Shown: positions 8,015 through 29,842 of the stretch, piece by piece
Position numbering within the stretch: the first letter of the stretch is position 1
Layout of the letters: every line of letters begins with the position of its first letter
NCBI GenBank assembly: GCA_041748215.1
Contig: JBGTDR010000212.1
Span: 1 to 50,011 of the forward strand
DNA: 50,011 nt
Direction of reading: 5' to 3'
DNA from: Chthoniobacterales bacterium
GTDB taxonomy: Bacteria; Verrucomicrobiota; Verrucomicrobiia; Chthoniobacterales; JAATET01
Position numbers and translations under genes: made by a program
The notes under the pieces: generated by a model
Databases searched by the model: none
The model's input: only the letters and a program-made list of their open reading frames with translations
What the model was told of the DNA's origin: nothing

Positions 8015-10311
8015 ATTCTCCCTCGAATCCTTCTCTGCCCGTCGTGGAAAACGATCCTCCCATCACGCCTGAAATCGTCGCCAAACACGGGATCACCCCC
8101 GACGAGTACGTCCGCATTCAAGAAATCCTCGGCCGCGACCCGAACTTCACCGAACTCGGAGTTTTCTCCGTCATGTGGAGCGAGCATTGCTCATACAAAA
8201 ACTCGAAGCTCGAACTCAAAAAATTTCCGACCACCGGGGAGCGGGTGCTCGTGCGGGCCGGTGAAGAAAATGCCGGCGTCATCGACATCGGCGACGGCTG
8301 GGCCATCGCGTTCAAGATGGAAAGCCACAACCACCCGAGTGCGGTCGAGCCGTTTCAGGGAGCGGCCACCGGGGTCGGTGGCATTATCCGCGACATCTTC
8401 ACGATGGGAGCGCGACCCGTGTTTTCGATGAATTCGCTGCGTTTCGGAGCGATCTCCGGTGACAGCGCGGAAGCCCGCACGAATCGCCGCCTTTTTGCCG
8501 GCGTCGTTTCCGGCATCTCGCACTACGGCAATTGCATTGGCATTCCGACCATCGGCGGGGAAATTTATTTCGACGATTCCTACAACGGCAATCCCCTCGT
8601 CAACGTGCTGAATCTCGGCATCCTCCGACACGACCAGATCGCCCGCGGCGGTGCGGTCGGCATCGGAAATCCGGTGTTCTACGTTGGAGCCGAGACCGGA
8701 CGCGACGGTCTCGCCGGAGCCGCGTTCGCCTCCCGGGAGCTCACCGAAGAGAGTAAGGAAGACCGGCCGGCCGTTCAGGTCGGCGATCCGTTCCGTGAAA
8801 AACTTCTGCTCGAAGCCTGCCTCGAACTCCTCGCCAGCGGCTGCGTGGCCGGGATCCAGGACATGGGTGCTGCCGGACTCACCTGCTCGACCTGCGAGAC
8901 CGCCAGCCGGGGCGGCACCGGCGTCGAAATCGAACTCGACCTCGTGCCGAAACGCGAAACGGGCATGACGCCCTACGAGATCCTCCTCAGCGAATCGCAG
9001 GAGCGCATGCTCGTCATCGTCAAGGCCGGTCAGGAACAGACCGTCCGCGACATCTTCGAAAAGTGGGACCTGCCGTACGCTCACGTCGGCGAGGTCAAGG
9101 ATGATGGCATGATGCGCGTCAAATCCGGCGGTCGAACGGTCGTGGAAATCCCGGCCCGGCAGCTCGCCGATGAAGCCCCGCTCTACGCCCGCGAAGCCGC
9201 CGAAAAAATCATCGCCGATGACGCGGAGTTTGCGGAAATCGTGAACGCGATGTCGTCACCGGCACCTGCGGTCGTGGACGCGCTGGTTGCGCTCCTGAGC
9301 GATCCGAGCATTGCAAGCAAACGCTGGGTCTGGCGGCAATACGATCACATGGTCCGCCTCGGTGCGGCAGTCCTGCCCGGTTCCGATGCCGCCGTTTTTT
9401 ACGTGCGGGAAGCGGACAAAATTCTCGCCGCTTCCACCGATTGCAACGCGCTTTATTGCCGCCAGGACCCCCGCCAGGGAGCTCGCATCGCCGTTGCCGA
9501 ATGCTGCCGCAACCTCGCGTGTTCCGGTGCCGTGCCGCTTGCACTCACCGACAATCTGAATTTCGGCAACCCGCACAAACCGGCAAATTTTCTCCAGCTT
9601 CGCGAAGCCGTCGAAGGAATGGCCGAAGCGTGCCGCGTATTTGGAACTCCGGTGACAGGTGGCAACGTGAGTCTCTACAACGAGTCGCCTGCCGGTTCCA
9701 TCGATCCGACGCCGACGGTCGGTGTTGTTGGTCTGATCGCCGACGCGGCCCACATCACGACGAGCGCCTTCAAGACGCCGGGGGATCTCGTCCTCCTGCT
9801 CGGAGCTCCCGTCGAAGAGACGGGTGCCCGCGGGATGGGCGCGAGCCATTACCTCAAGGTCGTGCGGGGTGAAAAACTCGGCCCGCCGCCCGCCCTCGAC
9901 TACGCCACCGAACGTGCCCTCCACGATGCCGTGCGCTCCCTGATTTCTGCCGGACTGATCCGCAGTGCTCATGACCTGAGCGAAGGCGGCCTGGCCGTCG
10001 CCGCTGCGGAAAGCTGCCTCGCCGCGAGCCCCGCTTCGCTCGGAGCAAAGCTTGCCTTTGCGACATCCCATTCAGCAATCGTCACGCTTTTCAACGAATC
10101 CCAGTCCCGCATTCTCGTTTCCATCGATCCTGCCCACCGGGAATCCGTGCTCGAGCAGCTCGCCACCGCCGGCGTGCCTGCGGCGGTCGCCGGCGAAGTC
10201 ACCGACGGCTCCGAACTCGTGATCACCTGCGGAGACGAGACGTTCACATGGCCGCTCGCCACGCTCCAATCCGCTTGGGCCGACACCATCGGCTCGCTGA
10301 TGGAGACCTGA
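8011..10311 (+). CDS. purL: Phosphoribosylformylglycinamidine synthase subunit PurL (FGAM synthase II)
   Basis: ATG at 8011 overlaps the purQ stop (ATGA). MNSPSN...[17 protein letters not shown]...ESHNHPS is the PurL/AIRS-domain signature. 766 aa. Confidence 0.9.
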
Positions 10312-10330
10312 GCGCAGGAAGGTTTCGGCT

Positions 10331-10879
10331 CTACGATTCGTCGCCGCAGAAATCAGCTTCGATTTCTGCCAGATGCCGTCCCGCGACTTCACGAATCCGG
10401 TTGAAGTGACCCTCCTCGCAACAGCAGACAAATCCTTCAGTCACCGTTTTGAGTTCTTCCCAGCGCTGGCGCACCTCCCGCGCTTCGCCCGGAGCGATCC
10501 GCCCGTCCGCACCAGCCAGCGCGATGATCGAAATCATGCTCGCGAATTCCTGAATGATCTCCGTCGTCGCAGGCAGCAGGTCGAGGCATTCGCCGTAGCC
10601 GTTCGGATCTTTCACGTAGAATCCGCCCGCCTGATGACAGAGCCACTGGATGATCGGTTCGTGGCCGGTGATCCGAATCAAGGCCGCGAGTCGATCCAGC
10701 GGATTGGTCGCGCCGCTGGCTCCGTCACCGCTTGCTTGCGTCCATTTATAAACGCTCGAAAGCGACACCCCGAGCTCCGTCGCCACGGCCTTCGGACCGC
10801 TGGCTTCAAAGGCGTCGCGCAAGACGTCGTGGGAATCCTGCATGAGCGGACGATGGGATGGCGGGTTCCCGGCTGACAA
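10331..10879 (-). CDS. HTH DNA-binding regulator (phage CII / Cro-like helix-turn-helix) with Cys-rich C-terminus
   Basis: KAVATELGVSLSSVYKWTQ is a classic Cro/CII-type HTH. The C-terminal FVCCCEEGH...FCGD is a cysteine cluster. It is divergent from the yqiJ/yqiK-like operon. Confidence 0.5.
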   Translation of the reverse strand: MSAGNPPSHRPLMQDSHDVLRDAFEASGPKAVATELGVSLSSVYKWTQASGDGASGATNPLDRLAALIRITGHEPIIQWLCHQAGGFYVKDPNGYGECLDLLPATTEIIQEFASMISIIALAGADGRIAPGEAREVRQRWEELKTVTEGFVCCCEEGHFNRIREVAGRHLAEIEADFCGDES

Positions 10880-11032
10880 GCAAATAGCCCACGGCCGCCC
10901 GCCGGAAGCGATGCGAAAATTACGCCAAAATTGTAAATGCGCGAATTACTTCGAGCCGGATAGGGTCCCAGCCATGAACCGCACTCGCCCCCCGCGTCTG
11001 CACAGCTTCACGGCTGGAGAGGAGGTCTTCGC
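10880..11032. promoter_or_regulatory. Divergent promoter/operator region between CII-like regulator (-) and nfeD-flotillin operon (+)
   Basis: A 153-bp non-coding gap between divergently transcribed genes. It is AT-richer than its surroundings (ttacgccaaaattgtaaatgcgcgaattacttcgag). Confidence 0.35.
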
Positions 11033-11662
11033 ATGAACGATCTGATTAACAGCGCACTTTTTCCGGTGAACCTCCCGTTCACGATCCTGCTGGCCGGTCT
11101 GGTCGGTTATTGGATCCTCGTGAGTTTCGGCATCTTCGATATCGAAGCTGGCGGAGATTTTTTCGATCTCGCCGATGCCGATCCCGATCTCCCAACGACC
11201 GGCGGGTTTCTGCATTTTCTCAACCTTGGCGAGGTGCCTCTGCTAGTAGTGCTCACCATCTTCACGCTTTCGATGTGGACCTGCGGACTGCTCGCTCATT
11301 TTTTCTTCAATAACGATTCGATCCTTCTCGGGCTCGCCTGCCTGGTTCCGAGTTTCGCGGTGAGCACCGTGGTGACGCGCTTTGTCACACTTCCGCTGAG
11401 ATCGGTTTTTCGCGCGCTTAATCGTCCCGTCGCCAGCGATCGGTCGCTCGTCGGTCAGACCTGCGTCATCCAGACGCGCGAAGCCACTGCCAGCTACGGT
11501 CAGGCCGAAGTGACCGCCGAAGGCGCGCCGATTCTCATTCAGGTGCGCGCAACCCGCAACGAAGCGCTCCGACGCGGCGACACGGCCCTCATCATCAGCC
11601 AGGACGCCGCGTCCGGCACATTCTCCGTTATCCCAGTCACCAACGAACAACTCGAACCCTAG
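11033..11662 (+). CDS. NfeD/YqiJ-like membrane protein (N-terminal TM helices, C-terminal OB-fold)
   Basis: Hydrophobic N-terminal half plus a soluble C-terminal ~80 aa (VGQTCVIQT...GDTALIISQD). It sits immediately upstream of a flotillin gene, the conserved NfeD-SPFH pairing. Confidence 0.6.
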   Translation: MNDLINSALFPVNLPFTILLAGLVGYWILVSFGIFDIEAGGDFFDLADADPDLPTTGGFLHFLNLGEVPLLVVLTIFTLSMWTCGLLAHFFFNNDSILLGLACLVPSFAVSTVVTRFVTLPLRSVFRALNRPVASDRSLVGQTCVIQTREATASYGQAEVTAEGAPILIQVRATRNEALRRGDTALIISQDAASGTFSVIPVTNEQLEP

Positions 11663-11674
11663 AATCCCACCGCA

Positions 11675-13708
11675 ATGTTCACCGCCCTCGGCATCGTCAT
11701 CGGCTTCGTCGCCCTCATCATCCTTCTCGGATTTATGGTCATGCTCATCCGGTGTTACCGGAAAGTGGACCAGGGCCAGGCCCTCGTTCGCAACGGACTG
11801 GGCGGAACGAAGGTCGCGTTTTCCGGCATCGTCGTTCTCCCTGTCATTCACAAAGCCGAGTTCATGGACATCTCGGTCAAGCGCGTCGAAATCGACCGTG
11901 GCAGCCAGACGGGTCTGATCTGCAAAGACAACCTTCGCGCCGACATCAAAGTCGCCTTCTTCGTGCGGGTAAACCAGACGTCGCAGGATGTTCTCAAGGT
12001 CGCACAGTCGATTGGTTGCGTGCGTGCATCCTCGCAGGCGGCAATGGTCGAGCTCTTCGACGCCAAGTTTTCCGAGGCTCTCAAAACGGTCGGCCGACAG
12101 TTCGAATTCGTCGAACTCTACAACTCCCGCGAACTCCTCAAGGACGACATCATCAAACTCATCGGCACCGACCTCAACGGCTTTGTCCTCGAAGACGTCG
12201 CCATCGATTACCTTGAGCAAACGCCGCTGAATCTCCTCAACCCCGACAACATTCTCGATTCCGAGGGTATTAAAAAGATCACGGAACTCACCGCGTCACA
12301 AAAGGTTCTCGCCAATAAAATCGACCGGGAGCGCGAGAAGACGATCAAACAACAGGACGTCGAGGCCCGCGAAGCGATCCTCGAACTCGAGCGCCAGCAA
12401 AAGGAAGCTGAGGAAAAACAAGCCCGCGAAGTCGCCATCGTCACCGCCCGCGAACAGGCGGAATCCAAAAAGGTTCAGGCCGAACAGTTGTTGCGTTCCG
12501 AGCAGGCCCGCATCCAAAGCGAAGAGGAAATTGCCATCGCCGAGGAAAACAAAGCCCGCCAGGTCATCGTCGCCCGCAAAAACAAAGAGCGCACCGACGC
12601 TATCGAGACCGAGCGTGTCGAGCGCGATCGGCTCATTGAAGTCACCGAACGCGAACGCATCGTCGAACTCGCCGTCATCGAAAAAAACAAGGCGGTCGAA
12701 ACTGAACAAAAGGTCATTCAGGACGTGATTCGCGAACGCCTCGTGGTGGAAAAAGCCGCCGTCGAAGAGCGCGAGCGCATCCGCGACACGGAAGCATTTG
12801 CCGCCGCCGAGCGTCAGAAAAAGGTCCAGATCACCGAAGCCGAAATGCAGGCCGAACAGGCGCTCGTCAAGGACATCAAAGCGGCTGAGGCCTCCAAAAA
12901 AGCGGCCGAACTTAAGGCCGAGGAGGATCTGTTCTCGAAGGTGAAAAATGCCGAGGCCGAAAAGGAAAGTGCGGAACTGCACGCCGAGGAAATTCTTATC
13001 GCGGCCGAGGCCCAGCAGGCCGCTGCCATCAAACAGGCCGACGCCAAAAAGACGCTCGCGCAGGCCACCACAGCCGAAGAAGCCGCCCACGGTCTCGCCG
13101 AGGCTCAGGTTCTCGAAGCCAAAGCCGCCGCCTCCGAAAAACAGGGCGTGGTGGATGCCAAAGTCGCCCAACTCAAATACGCGTCGGAAGCCAGGGGCAT
13201 CGCAGAAAAGGCGGAGTCGATGAAGGCGCTCGATGGCGTCGGACGCGAACACGAGGAATTCAAACTCCAGCTCGAAAAGGAAAAAGAGATCGAACTCGCC
13301 GGCATCAACATCCGCAAAGACATCGCGGCGCATCAAGCCGCCGTCCTTGGCGAGGCGCTGCGCAGTGCGAAGATCGACATCGTCGGCGGTGAAGCCCAAT
13401 TTTTCGACCGCATCACGTCCGCCATCACCAACGGCAAATCGATCGATCGCCTCGTGGACAACAGCCGTACGCTCACCGGCGTGAAAGACACGTTCTTCAA
13501 CGGCGACGGGGAAAAGTTCCGGGAGCAACTTGATGGTTTGATCGAAAAATTTGGCGTCAAGACCGAGGACATCAAAAATCTCACGATCGCCGCCGCCCTT
13601 GGCAAACTCATGACGGATACCGACGACCTCGAGAAACGCACATTTCTCGCCAACCTCCTCCATCAGGCCAAAAATCTCGGCCTCTCCGATCAGCCCGTCG
13701 CGAAATAG
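11675..13708 (+). CDS. Flotillin-family SPFH/Band-7 protein (YqiK-like) with long Glu/Ala/Lys-rich coiled-coil
   Basis: N-terminal TM followed by an SPFH domain (VRNGLGGTKVAFSGIVVLPVIHKAEFMDISVKRVEI), then ~400 aa of EA-rich heptad-like repeats. 677 aa. Confidence 0.8.
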   Translation: MFTALGIVIGFVALIILLGFMVMLIRCYRKVDQGQALVRNGLGGTKVAFSGIVVLPVIHKAEFMDISVKRVEIDRGSQTGLICKDNLRADIKVAFFVRVNQTSQDVLKVAQSIGCVRASSQAAMVELFDAKFSEALKTVGRQFEFVELYNSRELLKDDIIKLIGTDLNGFVLEDVAIDYLEQTPLNLLNPDNILDSEGIKKITELTASQKVLANKIDREREKTIKQQDVEAREAILELERQQKEAEEKQAREVAIVTAREQAESKKVQAEQLLRSEQARIQSEEEIAIAEENKARQVIVARKNKERTDAIETERVERDRLIEVTERERIVELAVIEKNKAVETEQKVIQDVIRERLVVEKAAVEERERIRDTEAFAAAERQKKVQITEAEMQAEQALVKDIKAAEASKKAAELKAEEDLFSKVKNAEAEKESAELHAEEILIAAEAQQAAAIKQADAKKTLAQATTAEEAAHGLAEAQVLEAKAAASEKQGVVDAKVAQLKYASEARGIAEKAESMKALDGVGREHEEFKLQLEKEKEIELAGINIRKDIAAHQAAVLGEALRSAKIDIVGGEAQFFDRITSAITNGKSIDRLVDNSRTLTGVKDTFFNGDGEKFREQLDGLIEKFGVKTEDIKNLTIAAALGKLMTDTDDLEKRTFLANLLHQAKNLGLSDQPVAK

Positions 13709-13765
13709 CCTCCAGCGTTTTAGCCACATTTGACATCAAATCGATGGTGCAATAAATTTTCCATC

Positions 13766-14005
13766 ATGACCAAAACACAAATTCAGCTCCCGGAAGACCT
13801 TTACCGCGAGGTGAAGGAATTTGCCCGCCAGCGGGAATGGTCCCTGGCGGAAACGTTCCGCCGCGGCGTCGAGGAACTTCTTCGCCAGTATCCAGAAAAT
13901 CCCACGCCTCGTGCGGAATGGAAACTGCCGGAGCCCCAGTTCCGCGGATATCGGCAAATGTCGGAAGCCGAGTTGAAACGCCACGCCCAGGAAGATTTCG
14001 ATTAA
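13766..14005 (+). CDS. vapB: Ribbon-helix-helix antitoxin (VapB-like)
   Basis: 79 aa (MTKTQIQLPEDLYREVKEFARQREWSLAETFRRGVEELL) directly upstream of a PIN-domain gene, 6 nt apart. Confidence 0.6.
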   Translation: MTKTQIQLPEDLYREVKEFARQREWSLAETFRRGVEELLRQYPENPTPRAEWKLPEPQFRGYRQMSEAELKRHAQEDFD

Positions 14006-14011
14006 CCCGTC

Positions 14012-14455
14012 GTGCAATCTCTCGACACAAACATCCTCTTCAACGCATTTGCCGGAGAGTCGATTCTGCGCCAATCCGCGGTCGCCTGGATGCAGAGTCT
14101 GGTTGATCGCGACGATGTCGTCCTCTCGGAACTGGTTCTCGTCGAGTTTTATCGCCTCCTCCGTAACCCCACCGTACTCGCGGATCCCCTCACGGCCCCG
14201 GAAGCGACCACTCTCATCAACACCTACCGACGCCACCCCCGCTGGCGGATCGTCGGTCTGCCGGCAAAGTCCCGCGAACTCCACGACGAACTTTACGCCT
14301 GCATGGCCCGGTCCAACGTCGCTTACCGCCGCATTTACGACACTCGCCTCGCCCTCAGCCTTCGTGCCGTCGGCGTCACCGACTTTGCCACCACCAACAA
14401 AAAGGACTTCCAAGGATTCGGTTTCGACCGGGTTTGGAATCCCCTCACCAAATAG
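14012..14455 (+). CDS. vapC: PIN-domain ribonuclease toxin (VapC-like)
   Basis: GTG start. LDTNIL (first conserved Asp), then E in VLVEFY and the C-terminal DTRLALSL...TNKKDF. Size and order are typical of VapBC modules. Confidence 0.7.
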   Translation: MQSLDTNILFNAFAGESILRQSAVAWMQSLVDRDDVVLSELVLVEFYRLLRNPTVLADPLTAPEATTLINTYRRHPRWRIVGLPAKSRELHDELYACMARSNVAYRRIYDTRLALSLRAVGVTDFATTNKKDFQGFGFDRVWNPLTK

Positions 14456-14460
14456 CCCAA

Positions 14461-17400
14461 ATGTCGGAGGATCCCGCCTCTCTCGAATCCGGCACCTACG
14501 AGATTCTCCGTCAGAGGTTGACCGAATGCGGTCGCGACCTGCGCGACCGCCTTGATCAACTCAACGCCGCGCGTCACGAAGTTTTTGGAGCCATTGAGAC
14601 CGCTCTCGTCGCAACGGATCGTGTCACCACCGAAAACAACTGTCTGCCCCGCGACCTTGTCGCCATTGGCGCAAATCGCTTCCTCTTCGGATACAACGTC
14701 CACCTTGGCCTGCGCACCGAGACTCAGCTCGCCGATGTTTTTTCGGCCTTTGAGTGGAGCGAGCGCCAGTTCAAACCCGTCCCGCTCGATTTCCTCGGCG
14801 ACCCCGATTTTCTCACCGACTTCAAGAGCCTGTTCAAATATTACCGCGAGACCGTTTTCGCGAAATTCGGCTTCATCGGCCCGCACCTTTTTATGGTCTT
14901 CCGCGTCGGCGGACGTTCGACCGACATCAAGACGTTCAAGTGGGCGCTCGATCACGGGAAATTCACCTACCTCGGCAACCGCAGTGATCACGAGTTCGCT
15001 TTTCCTCCTCAACACGAATTCGAGTGGACGCGCACCCACCGCGACTTTCATCGCAGCGGCCCCCACCCGCATATTTCCATCGAAGATCGTCTGTTCGTGG
15101 AATGCGTCGGCGGCGACCTCACCATCAAGGTCGAGGACAACACCGACTCCGGCACAGGCATTTATTCCGAGCCGGTTGACAATCCCGACCAGACCCTCGA
15201 CGACGCGGAAATTTTTTACGCCAGTCTCGGAAATCTGATCCTGCTCAGGATCCGCCCCTACCAGGAGAAGGCCTGGCGTTACCTCATCTTCAACGACAAG
15301 CTCGACCAGATCCACCGTGTGGATGCCATCGAGCAATCCTGCGTCCTCCTGCCCGATAGTCACGGAATCATCTTCTCGCGCGGCTATTACCTGCAAAGCG
15401 GCGAGCTCAAACTTTTCGACGCCAACTCGACCGACATGCTCTTCGAGAGGCGCATCCAATCGACCAACCGCGAAGATTTTCTTTACGTCTTCTACAATCG
15501 TGAGCGCGGGGATTACATCCTGATGCCTTACAACGTCATCACGCAGCGCGTGGAGACGCCGATTCATTGCCACGGATTTTCCACGTTCGAGAACGGCGAG
15601 ATCGCCCTGTTCAAATCCGACCCGGAGCCGCAAAAACACCATACCGTCCAGATTTGGCAAACCCCGTTCACCGGGCTTTCCTTCCAAGCGGCGGAGGCGC
15701 AGTCCGACTCCTATCTTTTCAAAGTCGGCAACGGCGATCTTGTCCGTTGTATGGCCGAATGCCACGAGATCCTCGGACTGCTCCAACGCGACGACAGCTA
15801 CGCCGGGCTTTACCTCGACATTCGCAAACGCACCGGCGACCTGCTCGATTCCTACTTCTGGCTCGCCCGCGACGAAACGTTTCAACTCGCGGAACCGCTC
15901 ACCGCCTTGCGCGACGCCGCCTCGCGCACCGTCGATGAATTCGACAAAGTCCTCGAGCTCCGCCGCCACGCCGCGACCGAAGTCGACCGGCTCGCCACTC
16001 GCGCTCGCACCCTGCTCGACGGATTGATCGTCGGTGAACTCCAGTCCATCGAGGCATTCGTCCACGCCCTCGCCGAACTCCGCAGCCTCCGTGGCGAACT
16101 CATCACTCTCAAGGACCTCCGATACATCGACCTGCCCGCCGTCGAATCGCTTGAAACCGCCGTTACCAAGAAATCCGACACGCTCTCCGCCGATTGCGTG
16201 CATTTCCTGCTCGGAGAATCCGCGCTCGGACCCTACCGCGAAAAAACCGCCGCGCTCGAAGCCCAGGTCGCCGCCATCACCCGCGTCGTCGAGGGCCGCG
16301 AACTCGAGACCGCGATCGAAAAAGCCGGATCCGAACTCGAACTCCTCATCGAAATTGTCGGCAACCTGCGCATCGCCGATGCCACCGAAACGACCCGCAT
16401 CGTCGAAGCGATCTCGGGCATTTACGCGAGTCTCAATCAGATCCTCGCCCGACTCCGCCAGCGTTTGCGCGAACTGCGAACCACCGAGGGCGCCGCGCAA
16501 TTCGCAGCCCAGCTCCGCCTCGTCAGCCAGGCGGTCGCGAATTCCATCGAACGTTGCGACACCCCCGACAAATGCGACGATTACCTCGGCCGCCTCATGG
16601 TTCAGGTCGAGGAACTCGAGAGCCGCTTTGCCGAATTTGATGACTACCTGATCGAACTCACCGAGAAGCGCACCGAAATCCAAAGCGCCTTCGAGGCCAA
16701 AAAACTCTCCCTGCTCGACGCCCGCAACCGCCGCGCCACCGCTCTCATGGGTGTCGCGGATCGGCTCCTCAAAAGCATCGCCCACCGCGTCGACACGCTG
16801 CCGGGCATCTCCGAGATCAACGGATTTTACGCCTCGGACCAAATGGTCGACCGCCTGCGCGATGTCGTCCAGCAGCTCCTTGACCTCGGCGACCCGGTCA
16901 AATCCGACGACCTCCAAAGCCGCCTCAAAACGATCCGCGAGGACGCTGTGCGCCAGCTTCGCGACCGCCAGGAACTTTTTGTAGGCGGCAGCAACGTCGT
17001 CGCGTTCGGCCAGCACCACTTCAACGTCAACACCCAGCCGGTCGAACTCACGGTGCTCGAACGTGACGAGACCCTCTCCGTACACCTCTCCGGCACCCGT
17101 TTTTTTGAAACCGTCAACGATTCCGAGATCACCGCGCTCAAACCGATTTGGAAACTCGAAGTCCCCGCTGAATCCCCGACCGTTTACCGCGCGGAATTTC
17201 TCGCCTACACCTTCCTGCGCGAGCTCGAATCCAGTCACCGCCTTGAGGAAGCCGCCGCCTGGTCCGAGGCCGACCGCCTCACCGCCGTGCAAACGTTCAT
17301 GGCCCCGCGCTACGCGGAAGGATATTTGAAGGGCGTTAACGACGCCGACGCCGCGCTCCTGCTCGGTGCTCTGCTCGAAATTCATCTCGCCGTCGGCACG

Positions 17401-19503
17401 CTGCGATTCCACCCCGAGGCCCGCGCCCTCGCCGTCGCCGCCTGGCAGCAACACCCCAACGAGAATCTCGCGCAGCAACTCGCCAGTTTCGGCGCGATGC
17501 AATTGCACTTCCCCGGCACTGACCGCCAGCCGGACTACCTTGCGCGACTGGATTCACTCGCCCGGCAATTCGCTGCTGAGACCGCACTCTTCCTGCCCGA
17601 CCGCGCGCCTGAGGCCGCCGCCTACCTCTTTGCCGTGCTCACCGCCGGAGCGGAGTTTCGCTTCAGCCACGACGCCTACACGCTCTTTGACGCCTTCGAA
17701 AAAGCCCTCGCCGACCAGCACGTGACCGAACGATTCGCCAATCTCCGCGTCCCCCTGCGCGACGATTTCATCCGCCACTTCGAGCTCCTGCGTGACTGGG
17801 TCGGCGGGTTTCTCCACGCTGCCGATCCCACCCGCGCCCGATATCGCGACGAAGTTGTCCTGCTCCTGTTGCGCGAACTGCACAACCGCCATGGCATCCA
17901 GCCTGTGGCCCTGCAAATCGAAATCACCGGCCTGCTCGGCCAGCATGCCGTTGTCCGCAACGGCACCTATTCGCTCGATTACCTCGAATTCATCGACCGT
18001 CTCACCCGGCATGCCAGCGAAGTCGCCCCGGCCTTCCATCAATTCCAGGCAGCGAAACGCCGGGTCGTCGAAGCCGCCCAGCAGCGCCTCCGCACCTACG
18101 AATTTCAGCCCCGTGTCCTCTCGTCCTTCGTCCGCAATCAGCTCGTCGACAAAGTTTTCCTGCCCCTCATCGGCGCAAACCTCGCCAAACAAATGGGCAC
18201 CGCGGGCGAAAACACCCGCACCGACCGCTCCGGCCTGCTTCTTCTCATCTCGCCGCCCGGATACGGCAAAACCACCCTCATGGAATACATCGCCGCCCGC
18301 CTTGGCGTCGTTTTCATGAAGATCAACGGCCCGTCGCTTGGTCACGCGGTCACGTCCCTCGATCCCGCCGAGGCCCCGAACGCCGCCGCCCGTGAGGAGG
18401 TCATCAAAATCAATCTCGCCTTCGAGATAGGCGACAACGTGATGATCTACCTCGACGACATCCAGCATTGCCACCCCGAGCTGCTGCAGAAATTCATCTC
18501 GCTCTGCGACGGCCAGCGCCGGATCGAGGGTGTTTATAATGGCGTTGCCCGCACCTACGACTTCCGCGGCCGCAAAGTCGCCGTTGTCATGGCCGGCAAT
18601 CCCTATACCGAAAGCGGCGAAAAATTTCGCATCCCTGACATGCTCTCGAACCGCGCCGACACCTACAACCTCGGTGACATGGCCACCGGCGCCCACCTCG
18701 ACGCATTCAAACTTTCCTACCTCGAAAACTCCCTCACCTCCAACCCCATTCTCGGTCCACTCGCCACCCGCTCCCGCCAAGACATTCACGGCATCATTCA
18801 AATGGCCGAAAATGGCCGCTCCGAAGGCATTGCGCTTGAAGGCACCTACTCCGCCCAGGAAATTGCCGACCTCGTCGCAGTGATGCAAAAGCTCCTGCGC
18901 ATCCGCGACGTCATTCTCAAGGTCAACGCCGAATACATCCGCTCCGCCGGCCAGGCCGACGCCTACCGCACCGAACCTCCGTTTCTGCTCCAAGGCTCCT
19001 ATCGCAACATGAACCGCCTCGCGGAGAAGGTCGTCCCCGTGATGAACGATGTCGAACTCGAGAACCTCATTGCGGACCACTACCGCAACGAAGCCCAAAC
19101 GCTCACCACCGGCGCCGAAGCCAACCTGCTCAAACTTCGTGAGCTCCTCGCCAAACTCACCCCCGAAGAAGCTGCCCGTTGGGCCGACATCAAAAAAACG
19201 TTTACCCGCAATCTGATTGTGCAGGGCGGCGACGGCACCGACCCGATCTCCCAAGTCGTCCGCCAGCTTTCCGCCTTTAACCACGGCCTCGAATCGCTTC
19301 GCGAAACGATTCAGAGCGTGGCCGAAAAGTCTCCTGACCCGCCGTCGGTGGCCACTTCGCCCGCCCGCTCCACCCTGAGTGCGAGCGGTGAGCGGGTTGC
19401 GATCAGCGCCGAAACGCTTCGCAAAATCTGGGATCTCATTGAAAACCAGAACGCGTCATCCGACGAATCCGTCGACGCGGTGATCGAAATGCCGAAACGT
19501 TGA
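14461..19503 (+). CDS. Giant (1680 aa) protein with C-terminal MoxR-like AAA+ ATPase domain; N-terminal ~1250 aa of unknown function
   Basis: ATG at 14461 (MSEDPASLE...). The ORF track's start at 14434 overlaps vapC. Walker A LLLISPPGYGKTTL, Walker B VMIYLDDIQH, and a MoxR-type sensor segment VVMAGNPYTESGEKFRIPDMLSNRADTYNL. One continuous ORF. Confidence 0.7.
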   Translation: MSEDPASLESGTYEILRQRLTECGRDLRDRLDQLNAARHEVFGAIETALVATDRVTTENNCLPRDLVAIGANRFLFGYNVHLGLRTETQLADVFSAFEWSERQFKPVPLDFLGDPDFLTDFKSLFKYYRETVFAKFGFIGPHLFMVFRVGGRSTDIKTFKWALDHGKFTYLGNRSDHEFAFPPQHEFEWTRTHRDFHRSGPHPHISIEDRLFVECVGGDLTIKVEDNTDSGTGIYSEPVDNPDQTLDDAEIFYASLGNLILLRIRPYQEKAWRYLIFNDKLDQIHRVDAIEQSCVLLPDSHGIIFSRGYYLQSGELKLFDANSTDMLFERRIQSTNREDFLYVFYNRERGDYILMPYNVITQRVETPIHCHGFSTFENGEIALFKSDPEPQKHHTVQIWQTPFTGLSFQAAEAQSDSYLFKVGNGDLVRCMAECHEILGLLQRDDSYAGLYLDIRKRTGDLLDSYFWLARDETFQLAEPLTALRDAASRTVDEFDKVLELRRHAATEVDRLATRARTLLDGLIVGELQSIEAFVHALAELRSLRGELITLKDLRYIDLPAVESLETAVTKKSDTLSADCVHFLLGESALGPYREKTAALEAQVAAITRVVEGRELETAIEKAGSELELLIEIVGNLRIADATETTRIVEAISGIYASLNQILARLRQRLRELRTTEGAAQFAAQLRLVSQAVANSIERCDTPDKCDDYLGRLMVQVEELESRFAEFDDYLIELTEKRTEIQSAFEAKKLSLLDARNRRATALMGVADRLLKSIAHRVDTLPGISEINGFYASDQMVDRLRDVVQQLLDLGDPVKSDDLQSRLKTIREDAVRQLRDRQELFVGGSNVVAFGQHHFNVNTQPVELTVLERDETLSVHLSGTRFFETVNDSEITALKPIWKLEVPAESPTVYRAEFLAYTFLRELESSHRLEEAAAWSEADRLTAVQTFMAPRYAEGYLKGVNDADAALLLGALLEIHLAVGTLRFHPEARALAVAAWQQHPNENLAQQLASFGAMQLHFPGTDRQPDYLARLDSLARQFAAETALFLPDRAPEAAAYLFAVLTAGAEFRFSHDAYTLFDAFEKALADQHVTERFANLRVPLRDDFIRHFELLRDWVGGFLHAADPTRARYRDEVVLLLLRELHNRHGIQPVALQIEITGLLGQHAVVRNGTYSLDYLEFIDRLTRHASEVAPAFHQFQAAKRRVVEAAQQRLRTYEFQPRVLSSFVRNQLVDKVFLPLIGANLAKQMGTAGENTRTDRSGLLLLISPPGYGKTTLMEYIAARLGVVFMKINGPSLGHAVTSLDPAEAPNAAAREEVIKINLAFEIGDNVMIYLDDIQHCHPELLQKFISLCDGQRRIEGVYNGVARTYDFRGRKVAVVMAGNPYTESGEKFRIPDMLSNRADTYNLGDMATGAHLDAFKLSYLENSLTSNPILGPLATRSRQDIHGIIQMAENGRSEGIALEGTYSAQEIADLVAVMQKLLRIRDVILKVNAEYIRSAGQADAYRTEPPFLLQGSYRNMNRLAEKVVPVMNDVELENLIADHYRNEAQTLTTGAEANLLKLRELLAKLTPEEAARWADIKKTFTRNLIVQGGDGTDPISQVVRQLSAFNHGLESLRETIQSVAEKSPDPPSVATSPARSTLSASGERVAISAETLRKIWDLIENQNASSDESVDAVIEMPKR

Positions 19504-19585
19504 TTCTCATTGGGGACGGAGTGTTCGCTGTCTTCACCACGCCGCAAAAGATCAGCTGCACGCTTCGCGTCTTCGTCTTTCGGGA

Positions 19586-20179
19586 CTAAGGAGGCGGTGG
19601 TTCGGAGGTTGCTTCGCGAACCAGAGTGGCAATCGGTGTGGGAAGGTCGAGCGAAAGCGCCACGTCGCGCGCGGCCGGGCTCATCTTGCGCCACGTTTTT
19701 TGGAGGATGCCGATGAATTTTTCGCGCGGGTATTCGGCGTGTACCTCGGCGAAGTGGGCAATTTCATTTTCCAGGAAAACGAGGCAGGCCGCGTCTTCGA
19801 GTGCCTGCGTGCCCGCATCGCTGCCGAGATCCTTTTTTGCGATCCAGGCCGCTGCCTGGTCTGCTTCCGATGGGGTGACGCCTGCAGCGAGGAGCATCCC
19901 GCGCGCACGCTCCGCCTGGGTCACGTAGAGGCCGCGCCGCCACGCGAAATAACCCGCCCGACCCTCCGGGTAGTTGCTACGTGGCACCTTCCATCGCTCG
20001 AGATGCTGGCAGCGTGCGGCGAGTCGCAGGATTTGCGGGGCGTTCGCGGCCATTCGTGTGACCCAGGACTCCATCCGGTCTGCGTAAACCAGTTCCACCG
20101 CACGGCCGTCCGGCGTCAACCGGAAATCCGCCGCGTGAGCCGCATCGATCAGTTCTCGCGCTCGCGCGTACACATCCAT
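19586..20179 (-). CDS. DUF4202-family protein
   Basis: Internal ATG at 20179 (MDVYARARELIDAAH...RCQHLERWKVPRSNYPEG...) gives ~198 aa, the normal family length. The longer ORF start is at 20275. Confidence 0.5.
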   Translation of the reverse strand: MDVYARARELIDAAHAADFRLTPDGRAVELVYADRMESWVTRMAANAPQILRLAARCQHLERWKVPRSNYPEGRAGYFAWRRGLYVTQAERARGMLLAAGVTPSEADQAAAWIAKKDLGSDAGTQALEDAACLVFLENEIAHFAEVHAEYPREKFIGILQKTWRKMSPAARDVALSLDLPTPIATLVREATSEPPPP

Positions 20180-20427
20180 CCCGGCCCGGTACAAATAATC
20201 CGATGGAGCGGCGACAACTATTTTCCCTGAAGTCGGCTCGGACGCTGGGGTGGGTAAAGATTTCGTCACACCCATTCGGTTTCCACCGAGGACCGGAGAA
20301 CGGATGCGTTCGCCGATTTACGCACAGGTTCTTCCGTGATACACGAACGCGACGGATGGGCCTGACGTGCCGGCCCCACCGTCAATCGGGGAACTTCTTA
20401 CACGCGCGAAACAGCAGACGGGGAAAA
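20180..20427. promoter_or_regulatory. Divergent intergenic region between DUF4202 gene (-) and pyk (+)
   Basis: A 248-bp non-coding gap between divergent starts. No motif identified. Confidence 0.3.
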
Positions 20428-25827: not shown

Positions 25828-28448
25828 AGTTTGAGTGCCTCTTCGGCCAATGGAAGGTTGATGGTGAAAATTGCTCCGCCTTCGGGCCGGTTCGCCACCC
25901 TCATCGACCCTTGGTGCGATTCCACGATGGTATGACAGATGCTCAATCCCATGCCCATCCCGGAACCGACTTCGCGCGTAGTAAAAAATGGTTCGAAGAC
26001 GCGATTGAGAATGTCTTCGGGGATGCCCGGTCCATTGTCCCAAACTTCGATCGTGACGCGGTCGTCCGCTTCGGCGGTCGCCCGCACGGTGATCGTTTTG
26101 ATGCCGTTGGATGCGTGCGCGGCCAGCGCCTTGCCCGCATTGCTGAGCAGATTGATGAACAAGTGGGTGAGCTGGGTGCGCTGCCCACGGACCACGAGTG
26201 ATGGCGGCAGGTCGACGTCGAGCCGCACGTCTTCGATTTCTTTGCCAATAATTTTCCGCGCTGCCTGAAATACCTCCTCGAGTCGGAAGACCGTTTCGCT
26301 CCCGGGTTTTTCGGGATACGCGAAGTGTTTCAGATCGGTGATCACGTCGCGAATCCGCACCATCCCCTCCTCGATGTCCGCGATGATTTCCATCATCTCC
26401 GGGCCGAGCGAGTCCTTGAACTGTTTGGCAAAACTGATCGCCGTGAGTGTGTAATTGAGCGGGTTGTTGATTTCGTGAAGCAGTCCGGCCGAGAGCGAAC
26501 CGATGGCATTCATCTTCTCGCTCTGGATGAGCATGGTCTCGGTGCGCTGGAGTTTTTCCAGCGTCTCACGGAGTTCGGTGTTGCGCGTGCGAAGATCGCG
26601 CTGGAGGCGGGCGGCGCGCAGAAGGTTCGCGGCGCGCGTTTTCACCTCGATGCTACTGAAGGGTTTGGTGAGGAAATCGTCGGCGCCGGATTGCAGGGCG
26701 TCGATCTTGGATTTTTCGTCGATGCGGGCCGTTAGCAGGATGATTTTGAGATCGCGATTGGAATCGTCGGATCGCAGTTCCCGGCAGACGGACAGACCGT
26801 CCTTTCCGGGCATCATCCAGTCGAGCAGCACGAGCTCGGGTTCGTGCTCTGCGACGAGATCGGAGACGTTGTCGCCGCGTGGTGTCTGGACGATGCGGTA
26901 GTCCTCGGAAAGCAACGACACGATGTATCGGCGCATGTCGTTTTCGTCGTCGGCGACCAGCACGACATTTTCGCCACTGCCGACCATTGGGAGTTCGGTG
27001 TCCGTGCCTTCCGTGTGGCTCCAGCTGCGATCGGCGGAGCGAAACGCCTTCTCGAATGGCTCTTCGGCGCTCGCGAACTCGGGGTCCTGATCAACGGTGA
27101 TCTGGGGGAGCTCCTCGGTGGCCACGCCCGCGGGAAGGCGGATCCGAAACGTGGTTCCCTTGCCGACCACACTTTCAACTTCCAGCGTGCCGCCGTGCTG
27201 TTCGACAAGTTCCTTGGCGAGAGCGAGACCGATGCCGACGCCCTGGTTCTGGTTCGACGCGTTGCTGCGCACCTGGTGAAATCGATCGAAAACCTTGCCA
27301 AGATCCTCTGGCGGAATTCCCACGCCGGTGTCGCTCACCTCGATCGCAGCTCCTTCGGCGTCGCCATTCCATCGCACCGTGATCGCACCACCGGCCGGGG
27401 TGTATTTGATGGCGTTGGTCAAGAGATTGATCAGCACCTTTTCGAGCCGTCCGGAGTCCGCGATCACGGCCACACCGGCATCGCCATCTTCGACGCGCAT
27501 CCGGAGTTGTTTCGAAAGCCCGAGGTGGCGCACGGATTCGACCACACCCTTCACGAAGATTCCCAGCTCGATCGGTTTTTTGCGTAGAATGTCCACGCCT
27601 TGATCCAGGCGGGTCAAATCGAGGAGATCGTTGATCAATTTCAGCAACCGGAGCGTGTTGCGGTGGATCAGAATCAGGCTGTCGTGAACCCGGCCCTCCA
27701 GCAGATCACTGCGACTGAGCAGCGTTTCGACCGGGCCGAGGATAAGAGTGAGCGGTGTGCGCAGTTCGTGGCTGACGTTTGAGAAGAACTGGGTCTTCAA
27801 CCGGTCCATGTCCTGCAGCTTCTGGTTCTGCACGTCGAGCTGGTGGCGCAGGCGGAAATCCTCAAACCGCCCGCGCGTGAGGAAATACGTCGACGTCACG
27901 CAGATGACTGTTGTGAGGATGATGAAAAACAGGTTGCTCGCGAAGATGGAGAGTGAATCCGGTGTCCCAAATCCCGGATGTGCAAAACAGGCGATAAAGT
28001 AGGCAGCGAGTGAGGCCGCGCAGACGAGAGCGGTTTCCCAAAACGTCCACGGCAGCAACGTTGCCATGATCAGAAAGACCGTGTTGAGGCCTGCGTAATA
28101 CGGGGATTTGGCTCCCTCGGTCAGGAAAATCATCAGGCACATCGAGAAATTCACGACCAGCGCCGAAAGCACCCCCAAGACCTTTACGGAGAACAGATTG
28201 CACCGGTCCTTCCCGAAGACCAGCGTCAGCACGAACGCCAGCAGGATCAGATCAACGCCGAGGCGAATTGCGAGAAAGTCGAGGACTCGATCGGGATAGA
28301 CGAAAAATTCCAGCAAACTTCCCAACGGGAAAAAGACCAGGCAGACGAGGTCGGCAACCGTGAGGTAGCGGATGCGCAGCTTGCGGTCGAACTCCCGATA
28401 CGCAGCGTCGAGCTCGCCTTCAGCCGCGATTGCCGTGGCTGTGCTCAT
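25821..28448 (-). CDS. Hybrid sensor histidine kinase with two kinase modules: polytopic N-terminal sensor, HisKA-HATPase, REC, second HisKA(HEINNPL-type)-HATPase
   Basis: 6-7 TM helices. First H-box NVSHELRTPLTL with HATPase (LTNAIKYTP...DTGVGIP...GVGIGLALAKE). REC: VLVADDENDMR...LLDWMMPGKDG...KPF. Second H-box GLLHEINNPLNY with HATPase (NLLSNAGKA...DNGPGIP...GMGMGLSICH). 875 aa. Confidence 0.85.
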   Translation of the reverse strand: MSTATAIAAEGELDAAYREFDRKLRIRYLTVADLVCLVFFPLGSLLEFFVYPDRVLDFLAIRLGVDLILLAFVLTLVFGKDRCNLFSVKVLGVLSALVVNFSMCLMIFLTEGAKSPYYAGLNTVFLIMATLLPWTFWETALVCAASLAAYFIACFAHPGFGTPDSLSIFASNLFFIILTTVICVTSTYFLTRGRFEDFRLRHQLDVQNQKLQDMDRLKTQFFSNVSHELRTPLTLILGPVETLLSRSDLLEGRVHDSLILIHRNTLRLLKLINDLLDLTRLDQGVDILRKKPIELGIFVKGVVESVRHLGLSKQLRMRVEDGDAGVAVIADSGRLEKVLINLLTNAIKYTPAGGAITVRWNGDAEGAAIEVSDTGVGIPPEDLGKVFDRFHQVRSNASNQNQGVGIGLALAKELVEQHGGTLEVESVVGKGTTFRIRLPAGVATEELPQITVDQDPEFASAEEPFEKAFRSADRSWSHTEGTDTELPMVGSGENVVLVADDENDMRRYIVSLLSEDYRIVQTPRGDNVSDLVAEHEPELVLLDWMMPGKDGLSVCRELRSDDSNRDLKIILLTARIDEKSKIDALQSGADDFLTKPFSSIEVKTRAANLLRAARLQRDLRTRNTELRETLEKLQRTETMLIQSEKMNAIGSLSAGLLHEINNPLNYTLTAISFAKQFKDSLGPEMMEIIADIEEGMVRIRDVITDLKHFAYPEKPGSETVFRLEEVFQAARKIIGKEIEDVRLDVDLPPSLVVRGQRTQLTHLFINLLSNAGKALAAHASNGIKTITVRATAEADDRVTIEVWDNGPGIPEDILNRVFEPFFTTREVGSGMGMGLSICHTIVESHQGSMRVANRPEGGAIFTINLPLAEEALKLC

Positions 28449-29842
28449 GCAGGTTTCCGGAAATTCAGAAACACGTTGACGCCGGTTTCATCCGCAAAAA
28501 TTTCGGGATCGGTTCCCTTGGGAGCCAGCGTCGCCATGTGGGCCTCGTCACGATAAATGAGATACCACTCGAGCAGATGCTCGATGCTGTAGCGTTCGGG
28601 ATTGTTCGGGTGGACGTTTGTGGTGACGAGATAGCCACCCGGCCGCACCCAACGGTAATACAGCTGGATTAGGTTGCGGCAGACGTTGTCCGGGAAATAG
28701 TCGAACAGACCCGCGCAATAAATCATGTCGTAAGTCGGCAGAAACCCGTCGGTCTCCTGATGCACGTCCTTGAGCAGCTCATCGATCGACTTTTGGATGA
28801 ACTTGATGACCGGTTTTCGCCCCGAGACTTCCATGGAGGCCGCAGTTCGCTCCTGGGCGTAGGCCAGCGTTTCTTTATTGAAGTCCATCAGATGGATCGC
28901 GCTCTGGCTGGACGAGTCGTGGTTTCGGATGAATCGTTGAATTTCGACCGCGGGTCCGCAGCCAATGGTGAGCACGGTGAAGATGCGTTGTTCGTCCGCA
29001 ACGCGCTCCGCTTCCGCGGAAATGAGCCGCTCCAGAATCACGATGCGATTGCGATGCGCGGCGGATGCGGCCATGTCCACCTGGAGATCATGGAAGATGC
29101 GGGCATAAGTGTTGTTACCAACGGACGGCGACTCCTTGAGCATCATGTTCACCATCTCGTAGTCGCCGGCGTAGCCGAGAGGTTTTGTGAAACACCGGTA
29201 TGCGAACGGCGCGCACAGCATGTAGGGGTGAATTTCCCGGCGCGCGAACGCCTTGTAAACCATCACCTCTTCCTGCGGCACGCGGGCGGCCTCACTTTCG
29301 AACATGGAAATCAGTGTCTGCAGTTTGCCCGCCATCGGCTGTTCGATCGACTCGCGGAACCGCGTCGCTTTCGTTTCGTCGGTATTGACGTTTCCGATGA
29401 TCGCGGTCTCGGCCTCTTCGATCCATCGGCTCGTCTCGGCAAGGAAATTGGCCATCTTGTTGACGGCGAGTTGATACGATTCGGAGAGATTGAGACCTTC
29501 CTCCCATTCGTGGATGAACCGCTCGAGTTCGCTGCCGAGCGCCGGGCCGGGCTCGAGGTGATCGAGATTATTCCACGAGTCGATCAGCGTAACGGAGACG
29601 ATCACCATCAATCCCGTAGTTACAATGCTGGTGACCACACCACGGCCGCGGTAAATGACGCGGTCGCCGCGCATGACGGTGAGTTCCTGAAGGACCTCGC
29701 TGAGCTGGACGAGCGAATAGGGATTGTAGACCTCGAAAACGGCGACGGATCGCGAGATGTGGACCAGGGTGCCGCGACCATTGATTCCCGACGTGTTCGT
29801 GAACGCGACGAGACTGTCTATTCCTGCAATTGCTTTTTCCAC
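28445..29842 (-). CDS. Class I SAM-dependent methyltransferase with N-terminal ~100-aa beta-rich (possibly PilZ-like) domain
   Basis: Motif I VLTIGCGPAVE. Post-I acidic LMDFN. Motif II/III region DMIYCAGLFDYF. The stop overlaps the hybrid kinase start by 4 nt. Confidence 0.65.
   Translation of the reverse strand: MEKAIAGIDSLVAFTNTSGINGRGTLVHISRSVAVFEVYNPYSLVQLSEVLQELTVMRGDRVIYRGRGVVTSIVTTGLMVIVSVTLIDSWNNLDHLEPGPALGSELERFIHEWEEGLNLSESYQLAVNKMANFLAETSRWIEEAETAIIGNVNTDETKATRFRESIEQPMAGKLQTLISMFESEAARVPQEEVMVYKAFARREIHPYMLCAPFAYRCFTKPLGYAGDYEMVNMMLKESPSVGNNTYARIFHDLQVDMAASAAHRNRIVILERLISAEAERVADEQRIFTVLTIGCGPAVEIQRFIRNHDSSSQSAIHLMDFNKETLAYAQERTAASMEVSGRKPVIKFIQKSIDELLKDVHQETDGFLPTYDMIYCAGLFDYFPDNVCRNLIQLYYRWVRPGGYLVTTNVHPNNPERYSIEHLLEWYLIYRDEAHMATLAPKGTDPEIFADETGVNVFLNFRKPA

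Follow-up and report, generated by a model that had tools for sequence, protein, structure and literature searches.

Related systems and the locus examined

Bacterial operons in which a Band-7/flotillin gene is joined by genes for a YqiJ/YuaF protein and a beta-propeller-coiled-coil-AAA+ protein have been described by comparative genomics in association with the phage shock protein (PSP) system, and a role in how sub-membrane complexes are assembled and in their dynamics has been proposed for them, with Dokdonia donghaensis ANH61663.1 as an example (Ravi et al., mSystems 2024; PMC11237479). Here we analyze a related operon in a stretch of 50,011 nucleotides (nt) from a Chthoniobacterales bacterium (Verrucomicrobiota; contig JBGTDR010000212.1 of assembly GCA_041748215.1, positions 1 to 50,011 of the forward strand; hereafter "the window"), and in particular the gene at 14461-19503, which encodes a giant ATPase of 1680 amino acids (aa). 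The gene order and the three protein architectures are alike in the published operon and in the window. However, the window carries an abbreviated form without the CesT/Tir-PspA pair, has a vapBC toxin-antitoxin module between the flotillin and ATPase genes, and has a divergent regulator that is CII-like rather than S24-type. Loci from Bacteroidota reproduce the full published form, with its divergent cHTH-protease regulator and, occasionally, a PLD gene. The published description names no Pfam family, so the identity of its AAA+ protein with the DUF3686 family discussed below rests on the matching operon and architecture.

Several better known systems share individual parts of this arrangement. 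Escherichia coli yqiJ-yqiK are homologues of the two genes upstream of the ATPase gene, but E. coli has no ATPase gene after yqiK. At that locus in strain K-12 (3192208-3195240), the type I toxin-antitoxin loci ibsD/sibD and ibsE/sibE lie just downstream, a further example of toxin-antitoxin genes located behind a flotillin gene. CbbQ and NorQ (PDB 6l1q, 9qh4) form stand-alone rings of about 260-aa subunits with the VWA partners CbbO and NorD, whereas the ATPase has no VWA gene, carries 1,200 aa of propeller and helical arm in front of its AAA+ module and is only 12-17% identical to them. The pairing of an SPFH-family scaffold with an AAA+ machine at the membrane has a possible parallel in HflK/C-FtsH, where FtsH is described as a membrane-anchored, classical-clade AAA+ protease within the HflK/C cage. 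In contrast, the ATPase has no predicted transmembrane segment, is MoxR-like and lacks a protease domain. The HflK/C cage is periplasmic, while a YqiK-type scaffold would face the cytoplasm. Finally, Vps4/ESCRT-III and PspF/PspA may be compared by functional analogy, as here, too, an AAA+ protein is encoded together with a membrane-remodelling polymer (PspA being an ESCRT-III homologue) whose assembly state it is proposed to control.

Family assignment and domain architecture

The ATPase gene occupies a plus-strand frame that is open from a TTG at 14434 to the TGA at 19501-19503. The first ATG, at 14461, is also the position at which alignments with homologues begin, and the predicted product is acidic; a hydrophobicity check of its sequence revealed no convincing transmembrane segment. 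An earlier reading made from the DNA letters (the initial annotation) had described a single open reading frame (ORF) of 1680 aa with Walker A, Walker B and sensor motifs; the ORF is real, and all of the quoted motifs are found in its translation. It had also suggested, tentatively, membership of the DUF3686 plus AAA family. This was confirmed by a Pfam scan, in which DUF3686 (PF12458) matched aa 26-466 with an E-value (E) of 8.8e-183, scoring 608.3 bits (cut-off 25) and spanning the whole of its 448-position profile (1-448); homologues carry the name "DNA repair ATPase". DUF7902 (PF25472) follows at aa 588-671 (E 1.9e-24), and weak AAA and AAA_5 matches were obtained at aa 1260-1384, the latter above its own cut-off. 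The assignable C-terminal AAA+ part is as first described, but with PF12458 and PF25472 in front of it, assignment is not confined to the last ~350 aa.

AlphaFold2 (AF2) models were built from 54-sequence alignments as two single-chain pieces, aa 1-1200 and aa 1151-1680, with mean predicted local distance difference test (pLDDT) scores of 81.6 and 83.6, respectively. The modelled order of domains is a propeller, a helical arm, a helical domain, hairpins with a linker helix, the AAA+ module and a tail (Table 1). Foldseek searches with the N-terminal domain returned 6-7-bladed propellers (DCAF1 WD40, Ycf48, TolB and CyRPA; E 1e-4 to 1e-2). Matches of the N-terminal model to dynein, IFT and clathrin were rejected as long-helix noise (TM-scores of 0.11 or less), and weak LmuB and ATG17 matches that fall in the arm (aa 418-839) reflect coiled-coil similarity. 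Model confidence is mostly 80-94 between the arm and the AAA+ module (aa 847-1215) and drops below 50 in the tail at aa 1631-1648 and 1664-1680 (model residues 481-498 and 514-530). The ATPase is a cytoplasmic member of DUF3686 in which a propeller, a long helical arm and a helical domain precede a C-terminal MoxR/CbbQ-like AAA+ module. Within the propeller, the segment at aa 195-250 (window 15044-15210) is among the most conserved of the family, with HPHISIED... and DQTLDDAE invariant, and it has the lowest model confidence (pLDDT 43-65). This segment may fold only on a partner.

Catalytic motifs of the AAA+ module

In a structure search with the AF2 model, the closest folds to the AAA+ module were CbbQ, NorQ, midasin and dynein. 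A PDB sequence search with the ATPase gave matches at the level of the P-loop only (p97, Rix7 and RuvB). Before sensor 1, aa 1354-1367 are modelled as a hairpin, whilst the stretch after beta-2 is a conserved loop without a clear hairpin. In alignments of 20 and of 54 sequences, GYGKTT with the Walker A lysine, the Walker B aspartates DD1332-1333, the sensor 1 residue N1380 and R1398 are all invariant, and homologues from Pseudomonadota, Actinomycetota, Bacteroidota, Clostridia, Kiritimatiellota, Omnitrophota and Desulfobacterota retain the active-site residues. R1398 is a putative arginine finger, assigned by its position. Because these residues are invariant across phyla, the ATPase is very probably active; the sensor and the putative arginine finger, whose loss the initial annotation had considered, are intact.

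Distribution and conservation of the family

Of more than 5,600 scored homologues, the best 120 are all co-linear with the ATPase (1,640-1,950 aa, 96-100% query coverage, 52-76% identity), come from several phyla and have the same Pfam set. A homologue from a Chthoniobacterales metagenome-assembled genome shows 75% identity. Between phyla, identity is 42-55% over about 1,600 aa, with 42% to copies from Pseudomonas or Streptomyces. When 1.84 billion cluster representatives were searched with the propeller alone, just 740 clusters at 50% identity were recovered; matching representatives of about 1,600-1,930 aa have the domain at their N-terminus, and many shorter matches resemble fragments. The family has a single fixed architecture and evolves slowly. 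N-terminal ankyrin, TPR or HEAT repeats precede the propeller in homologues P0062, P0072, P0084, P0087, P0113 and P0117, which hints at additional protein-binding modules.

A family copy occurs in at least 597 species (one genome scanned per species) and in 13 plasmid, chromid or mislabelled chromosome records, and neither the 50,697 phage records nor the IMG/VR contigs searched contained one. The initial annotation had named ubiquitous homologues in a conserved housekeeping context as the finding that would speak against its reading. The context is indeed conserved and unrelated to defence, as shown below, but the family is sporadic rather than ubiquitous.

Conserved gene neighbourhood

Neighbourhoods were compared in 80 related loci from seven or more phyla, with up to 10 kb of flanking sequence; a flotillin-like gene was found in 70 and a YqiJ-like gene in 53. 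Linkage was counted in the 65 loci whose upstream sequence exceeds 3 kb: in 62 of them the flotillin gene is upstream and on the same strand, and in 53 the YqiJ-like gene is upstream. Unsupervised all-against-all clustering of every ORF in the 80 loci produced the same three-gene core, and gaps within the operon are often below 150 nt or replaced by overlaps. The linkage of the ATPase to a membrane-anchored flotillin and a YqiJ/NfeD-type protein is thus obligate-looking, and the ATPase gene is the last of a conserved predicted operon (yqiJ-like, yqiK-like flotillin, ATPase). No neighbours other than flotillin, YqiJ, PspA, CesT and the helix-turn-helix (HTH) regulator recur in the 80 loci, and no VWA-domain partner is among them. 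PIN toxin, antitoxin, DUF4202, pyruvate kinase and purL genes were found in none of the 80. The proposal of a giant ATPase tied to a toxin-antitoxin system is therefore not supported, as the conserved partners are flotillin and YqiJ-like proteins instead.

The flotillin/NfeD operon noted upstream of the ATPase gene is also real, with matches to E. coli YqiK and YqiJ (Table 1). The YqiJ-like protein has a weak YqiJ_N Pfam match, about three transmembrane segments (hydrophobic stretches at about aa 12-35, 58-90 and 95-120) and a soluble C-terminal domain. For the flotillin-like protein, searches of Pfam (including Band_7), NCBIfam and PDB sequences gave no match; its homologues are annotated as flotillin or YqiK in their source records. 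In its layout, one N-terminal transmembrane segment is followed by an SPFH region, a long helix rich in Glu and Ala, and a C-terminal region that exceeds that of YqiK in length. Compared with E. coli YqiK, ATPase-linked flotillins have about 120-140 additional aa, and aa 526-600 are conserved among them and have no counterpart in YqiK. This extra region could be a docking site. The divergent HTH protein shares 47% identity with proteins encoded in front of the operon in five Verrucomicrobiota/Kiritimatiellota-type loci and also in L083, a relative described below, and its gene is a candidate regulator of the operon. A plus-strand ORF at 10373-10876 was rejected as a gene despite tblastn matches of its own, being a shadow of the antisense HTH gene.

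Extended forms of the operon are seen mainly in Bacteroidota, where PspA (PF04012, E 6.5e-35) and a CesT_Tir_1 chaperone (E 7.3e-56) are encoded upstream, along with a divergent HTH-S24 regulator and, now and then, PLD. By cluster counts, with the families confirmed by profile, PspA is present in 17 of the 80 loci and CesT in 12. On plasmid pQBR103 (L084, 83437-102855), the ATPase gene is the last of a ten-gene, same-strand cluster, the first half of which encodes YjfI, PspA, a rhomboid protein, DUF2491 and DUF350, and the second half DUF1190, glutathionylspermidine synthase, a hypothetical protein, SPFH and the ATPase. This Pseudomonas megaplasmid joins a cluster of the yjfI-pspA-yjfKLM-gss type with the flotillin-ATPase module, with a rhomboid protease gene inserted. 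A Streptomyces plasmid has the order hypothetical gene, flotillin, ATPase.

The vapBC pair and the flotillin/ATPase junction

The initial annotation placed a vapBC module directly before the ATPase gene. Such a module is present, with a TIGR00028 match above cut-off for the toxin and a weak RHH_1 match for the antitoxin (Table 1), and vapB and vapC are 6 nt apart. The ATPase gene does start right behind vapC, at a spacing of 5 nt rather than the 6 nt given, the TAG of vapC occupying 14453-14455. The promoter-like box before vapB is the sole sigma-70-like match in 10200-20400, where 1.9 are expected, so its count alone is not significant; the promoter/terminator scan as a whole was not statistically informative.

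In the closest relative (L082, ATPase 76% identical), an orthologous vapBC pair occupies the same place behind the same TTGACA-17-TAAATT box, its vapC being 59% identical, and among the relatives vapBC was found only there. In L083 (ATPase 74% identical, syntenic from purL onward), vapBC is absent and ~0.9 kb of unrelated hairpin-repeat sequence is found instead. In most other loci, the flotillin and ATPase genes overlap or are separated by less than about 300 nt, and about a quarter to a third of loci have one to three unrelated small genes at this junction, among them a ParDE-like pair, an AbiEii toxin, DUF559 endonucleases, PDDEXK_3 and an IS200-type transposase (L007, L027, L028, L029, L033, L039 and L057). 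The flotillin/ATPase junction is a recurrent landing site for small selfish genes. Since none of the 80 related loci carries vapBC, since L082 has it and the syntenic L083 does not, and since other small genes occupy this junction in other loci, the vapBC pair in the junction at 13709-14460 is best interpreted as a lineage-specific selfish insertion and not as a functional partner of the ATPase. This copy of the ATPase is an ordinary orthologue of a Pfam-defined family, and only the vapBC insertion is specific to the window.

The L083 locus has further peculiarities. Its ~0.9-kb junction is GC-rich with repeated GATCCCGAAGGGATC hairpins, and a 292-aa ORF there is spurious, as it is Arg/Pro-rich and made of the hairpin repeats. 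The flotillin gene (L083:3189-5998) is split into three ORFs, through frameshifts or assembly errors.

Proposed function and alternatives

The family assignment, the domain layout, the intactness of the ATPase motifs, the linkage within the operon and the lack of conservation of vapBC are established, and from them we consider it somewhat probable, at slightly better than even odds, that the ATPase is a cytoplasmic, ATP-driven remodeller of flotillin/PspA membrane scaffolds within an envelope-stress or membrane-maintenance system. The protein would assemble as a ring, like its structural relatives. Its propeller and arm would recognise the flotillin (SPFH) scaffold at the inner face of the membrane, and PspA polymers where these are present, and the AAA+ ring would spend ATP on the assembly, disassembly or reshaping of the scaffold during membrane stress. 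That it is a ring, that flotillin or PspA is its substrate and in which direction it acts are inferred. In Bacillus subtilis, an SPFH protein is reported to link PspA to the membrane (PMC8581546). A more specific and rather speculative version is that of a MoxR/dynein-class ring with propeller-tipped long arms, which might grip YqiK-type flotillin domes, and PspA polymers where present, and disassemble or reshape them as a functional analogue of Vps4/NSF, thereby supplying the energy-consuming partner that bacterial membrane scaffolds are missing; just as tentatively, such an analogue would come from a different AAA+ clade.

Several observations weigh against scaffold remodelling. The proposal is built on gene linkage and fold, and no experimental work on the flotillin-YqiJ-ATPase operon was found in the literature searched. 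MoxR-type ATPases are normally paired with a VWA partner, and none is encoded here. The loop at the position of pore loop 1, TSLDPAEAPNAAAREE, has no aromatic residue, which makes classical threading of a polypeptide doubtful. Three of the 65 loci have no adjacent flotillin gene, and three more, with less than 3 kb of upstream sequence, also show none. Neither PspA nor CesT was found within the 50-kb window, which is why its operon is termed abbreviated. Moreover, up to ~15% of the immediate flanking ORFs in related loci match some PADLOC model, and since this share is perhaps above the genome background, some family copies may lie in variable regions.

The linkage to flotillin and YqiJ would serve equally well if the ATPase acted on client proteins held by the scaffold and not on the scaffold itself, using flotillin/YqiJ as a docking platform on which client membrane proteins would be unfolded, extracted or matured. 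The kinship of its AAA+ module with the chaperone-like MoxR proteins CbbQ and NorQ is in line with such client extraction, as is the precedent of an SPFH cage with an AAA+ protein in HflK/C-FtsH (PMC12048511; PMC13220708). However, no protease domain, VWA adaptor or recurrent client gene is found in the operon, and there is no conserved neighbour beyond flotillin, YqiJ, PspA and CesT; we regard this close rival as an unlikely explanation. Far less probable still is an action on DNA as an SMC/SbcC/RecN-like coiled-coil ATPase, as implied by the labels that it has inherited, "DNA repair ATPase" and "ATPase involved in DNA repair". The LmuB match of the coiled-coil region, a weak one at E 2e-4, and the divergent S24-peptidase HTH (LexA/CI-like) regulator of some Bacteroidota operons agree with these names, but the AAA+ module is contiguous, C-terminal and of MoxR type rather than a split ABC/SMC head, and all conserved partners are membrane proteins. 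Furthermore, no DNA-binding, nuclease, SMC or ABC family was found with Pfam, NCBIfam, the model or Foldseek, and the literature search returned no paper naming DUF3686 or PF12458. The name probably arose from coiled-coil similarity to SbcC/SMC-type proteins.

The initial annotation favoured anti-phage defence, in which the ATPase, alone or with the vapBC or flotillin module, would sense infection and trigger defence or abortive infection. A large ATPase with a sporadic spread that is found on megaplasmids, often with toxin-antitoxin or other small mobile genes at its junction, would suit such a role, and flanking ORFs do match the PADLOC models of Mokosh, HamA, DRT and SAVED-TIR. These matches come from 129 ORFs directly flanking the operon in related loci (threshold E 1e-8), yet each model is matched in two loci at most, several of the matches are to generic enzymes, and the association is not a conserved one. 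For the ATPase itself, the best matches in PADLOC-DB v2 are LmuB (2e-4), through the coiled coil, and IetA (9e-4), through the P-loop only, and the flotillin-like, YqiJ-like, HTH and vapBC proteins have no match. None of the 80 loci has vapBC, and the only conserved partners are membrane-scaffold and PSP genes. Nor does the window have the character of a defence island, its genes being metabolic and housekeeping. Arms-race proteins do not typically keep 42-55% identity across phyla along some 1,600 aa, and this very high conservation, together with the absence from phage records, disfavours an arms-race function. The defence-island reading is accordingly unsupported, and we consider a defence function improbable.

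Features and surroundings of the locus

The features of the operon are collected in Table 1. Long antisense ORFs lie over the ATPase gene at 14335-17508 (minus strand, 1057 aa) and 17554-19284 (minus strand, 576 aa), and the GC skew is strongly negative across 14-19 kb (-0.19 to -0.26). Both ORFs are probably compositional shadows of the GC-rich gene. The rest of the window is ordinary chromosome, with genes for an acyl-CoA synthetase, Lnt, PurL, pyruvate kinase and two-component proteins, and further holds a type I polyketide synthase and an FtsK-like protein. The polyketide synthase (29882-36178, minus strand) is a 2098-aa, single-module, fully reducing type I enzyme (KS-AT-DH-ER-KR-ACP), with a methyltransferase gene downstream at 28445-29842. 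The 1300-aa protein encoded at 37686-41588 (minus strand) has FtsK/SpoIIIE at aa 746-918 as its sole recognised domain, and ~740 aa N-terminal to it have no assignment.

Table 1 Features of the flotillin-ATPase operon in the window, with supporting evidence.
Feature	Position	Strand	Details
CII/YmfL-like HTH regulator, divergent	10331-10879	-	Pfam Phage_CP76 E 1e-5, HTH_23
YqiJ/YuaF (NfeD-like) membrane protein, first operon gene	11033-11662	+	BLASTP to E. coli YqiJ, E 3e-5
YqiK-type flotillin-like protein	11675-13708	+	BLASTP match to E. coli YqiK, E 6e-44 (527 aa, 29% identical)
Promoter-like box TTGACA-17-TAAATT, immediately preceding vapB	13730-13758	+	
vapB-like RHH (ribbon-helix-helix) antitoxin	13766-14005	+	weak RHH_1 match, E 0.0026
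vapC PIN-domain toxin	14012-14455	+	TIGR00028 76.2 bits (cut-off 73.6); Pfam PIN
DUF3686-family giant AAA+ ATPase	14461-19503	+	1680 aa, 189 kDa, no transmembrane segment
N-terminal beta-propeller, aa 48-400, ~26 strands (AF2)	14602-15660	+	core of DUF3686; preceded by helix aa 12-42
Helical-bundle/coiled-coil arm, aa 418-839, contains DUF7902	15712-16977	+	AF2 secondary structure, PF25472
Beta unit aa 847-884, helical domain aa 910-1137, beta-hairpins and linker helix aa 1146-1215	16999-18105	+	
MoxR/AAA_5-like AAA+ module, about aa 1220-1560	18118-19140	+	
Walker A SPPGYGKTT, aa 1264-1272	18250-18276	+	
Walker B MIYLDDIQ, aa 1328-1335	18442-18465	+	
Sensor 1 and putative Arg finger AGNPYTESGEKFRIPDMLSNRAD, aa 1378-1400	18592-18660	+	
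LQGSYRNMN	18988-19014	+	
C-terminal helices and Ser-rich low-confidence tail, aa 1561-1680	19141-19500	+	poor conservation

Implications

In practical terms, neither the name "DNA repair ATPase" nor the defence-island reading should be propagated for these proteins, and selfish genes at the flotillin/ATPase junction can mislead screens that rely on guilt by association. The family bears on the way in which bacteria build, turn over or recycle SPFH/flotillin assemblies and PspA polymers. A Vps4-like ATPase appears to be absent from bacteria, and PspA is said to be without such a partner (2025 review, PMC7619361). As very large and unusually conserved proteins that are tied to a flotillin gene in nearly all loci sampled, across seven or more phyla, the members of the DUF3686 family are strong candidates for a Vps4-like role.

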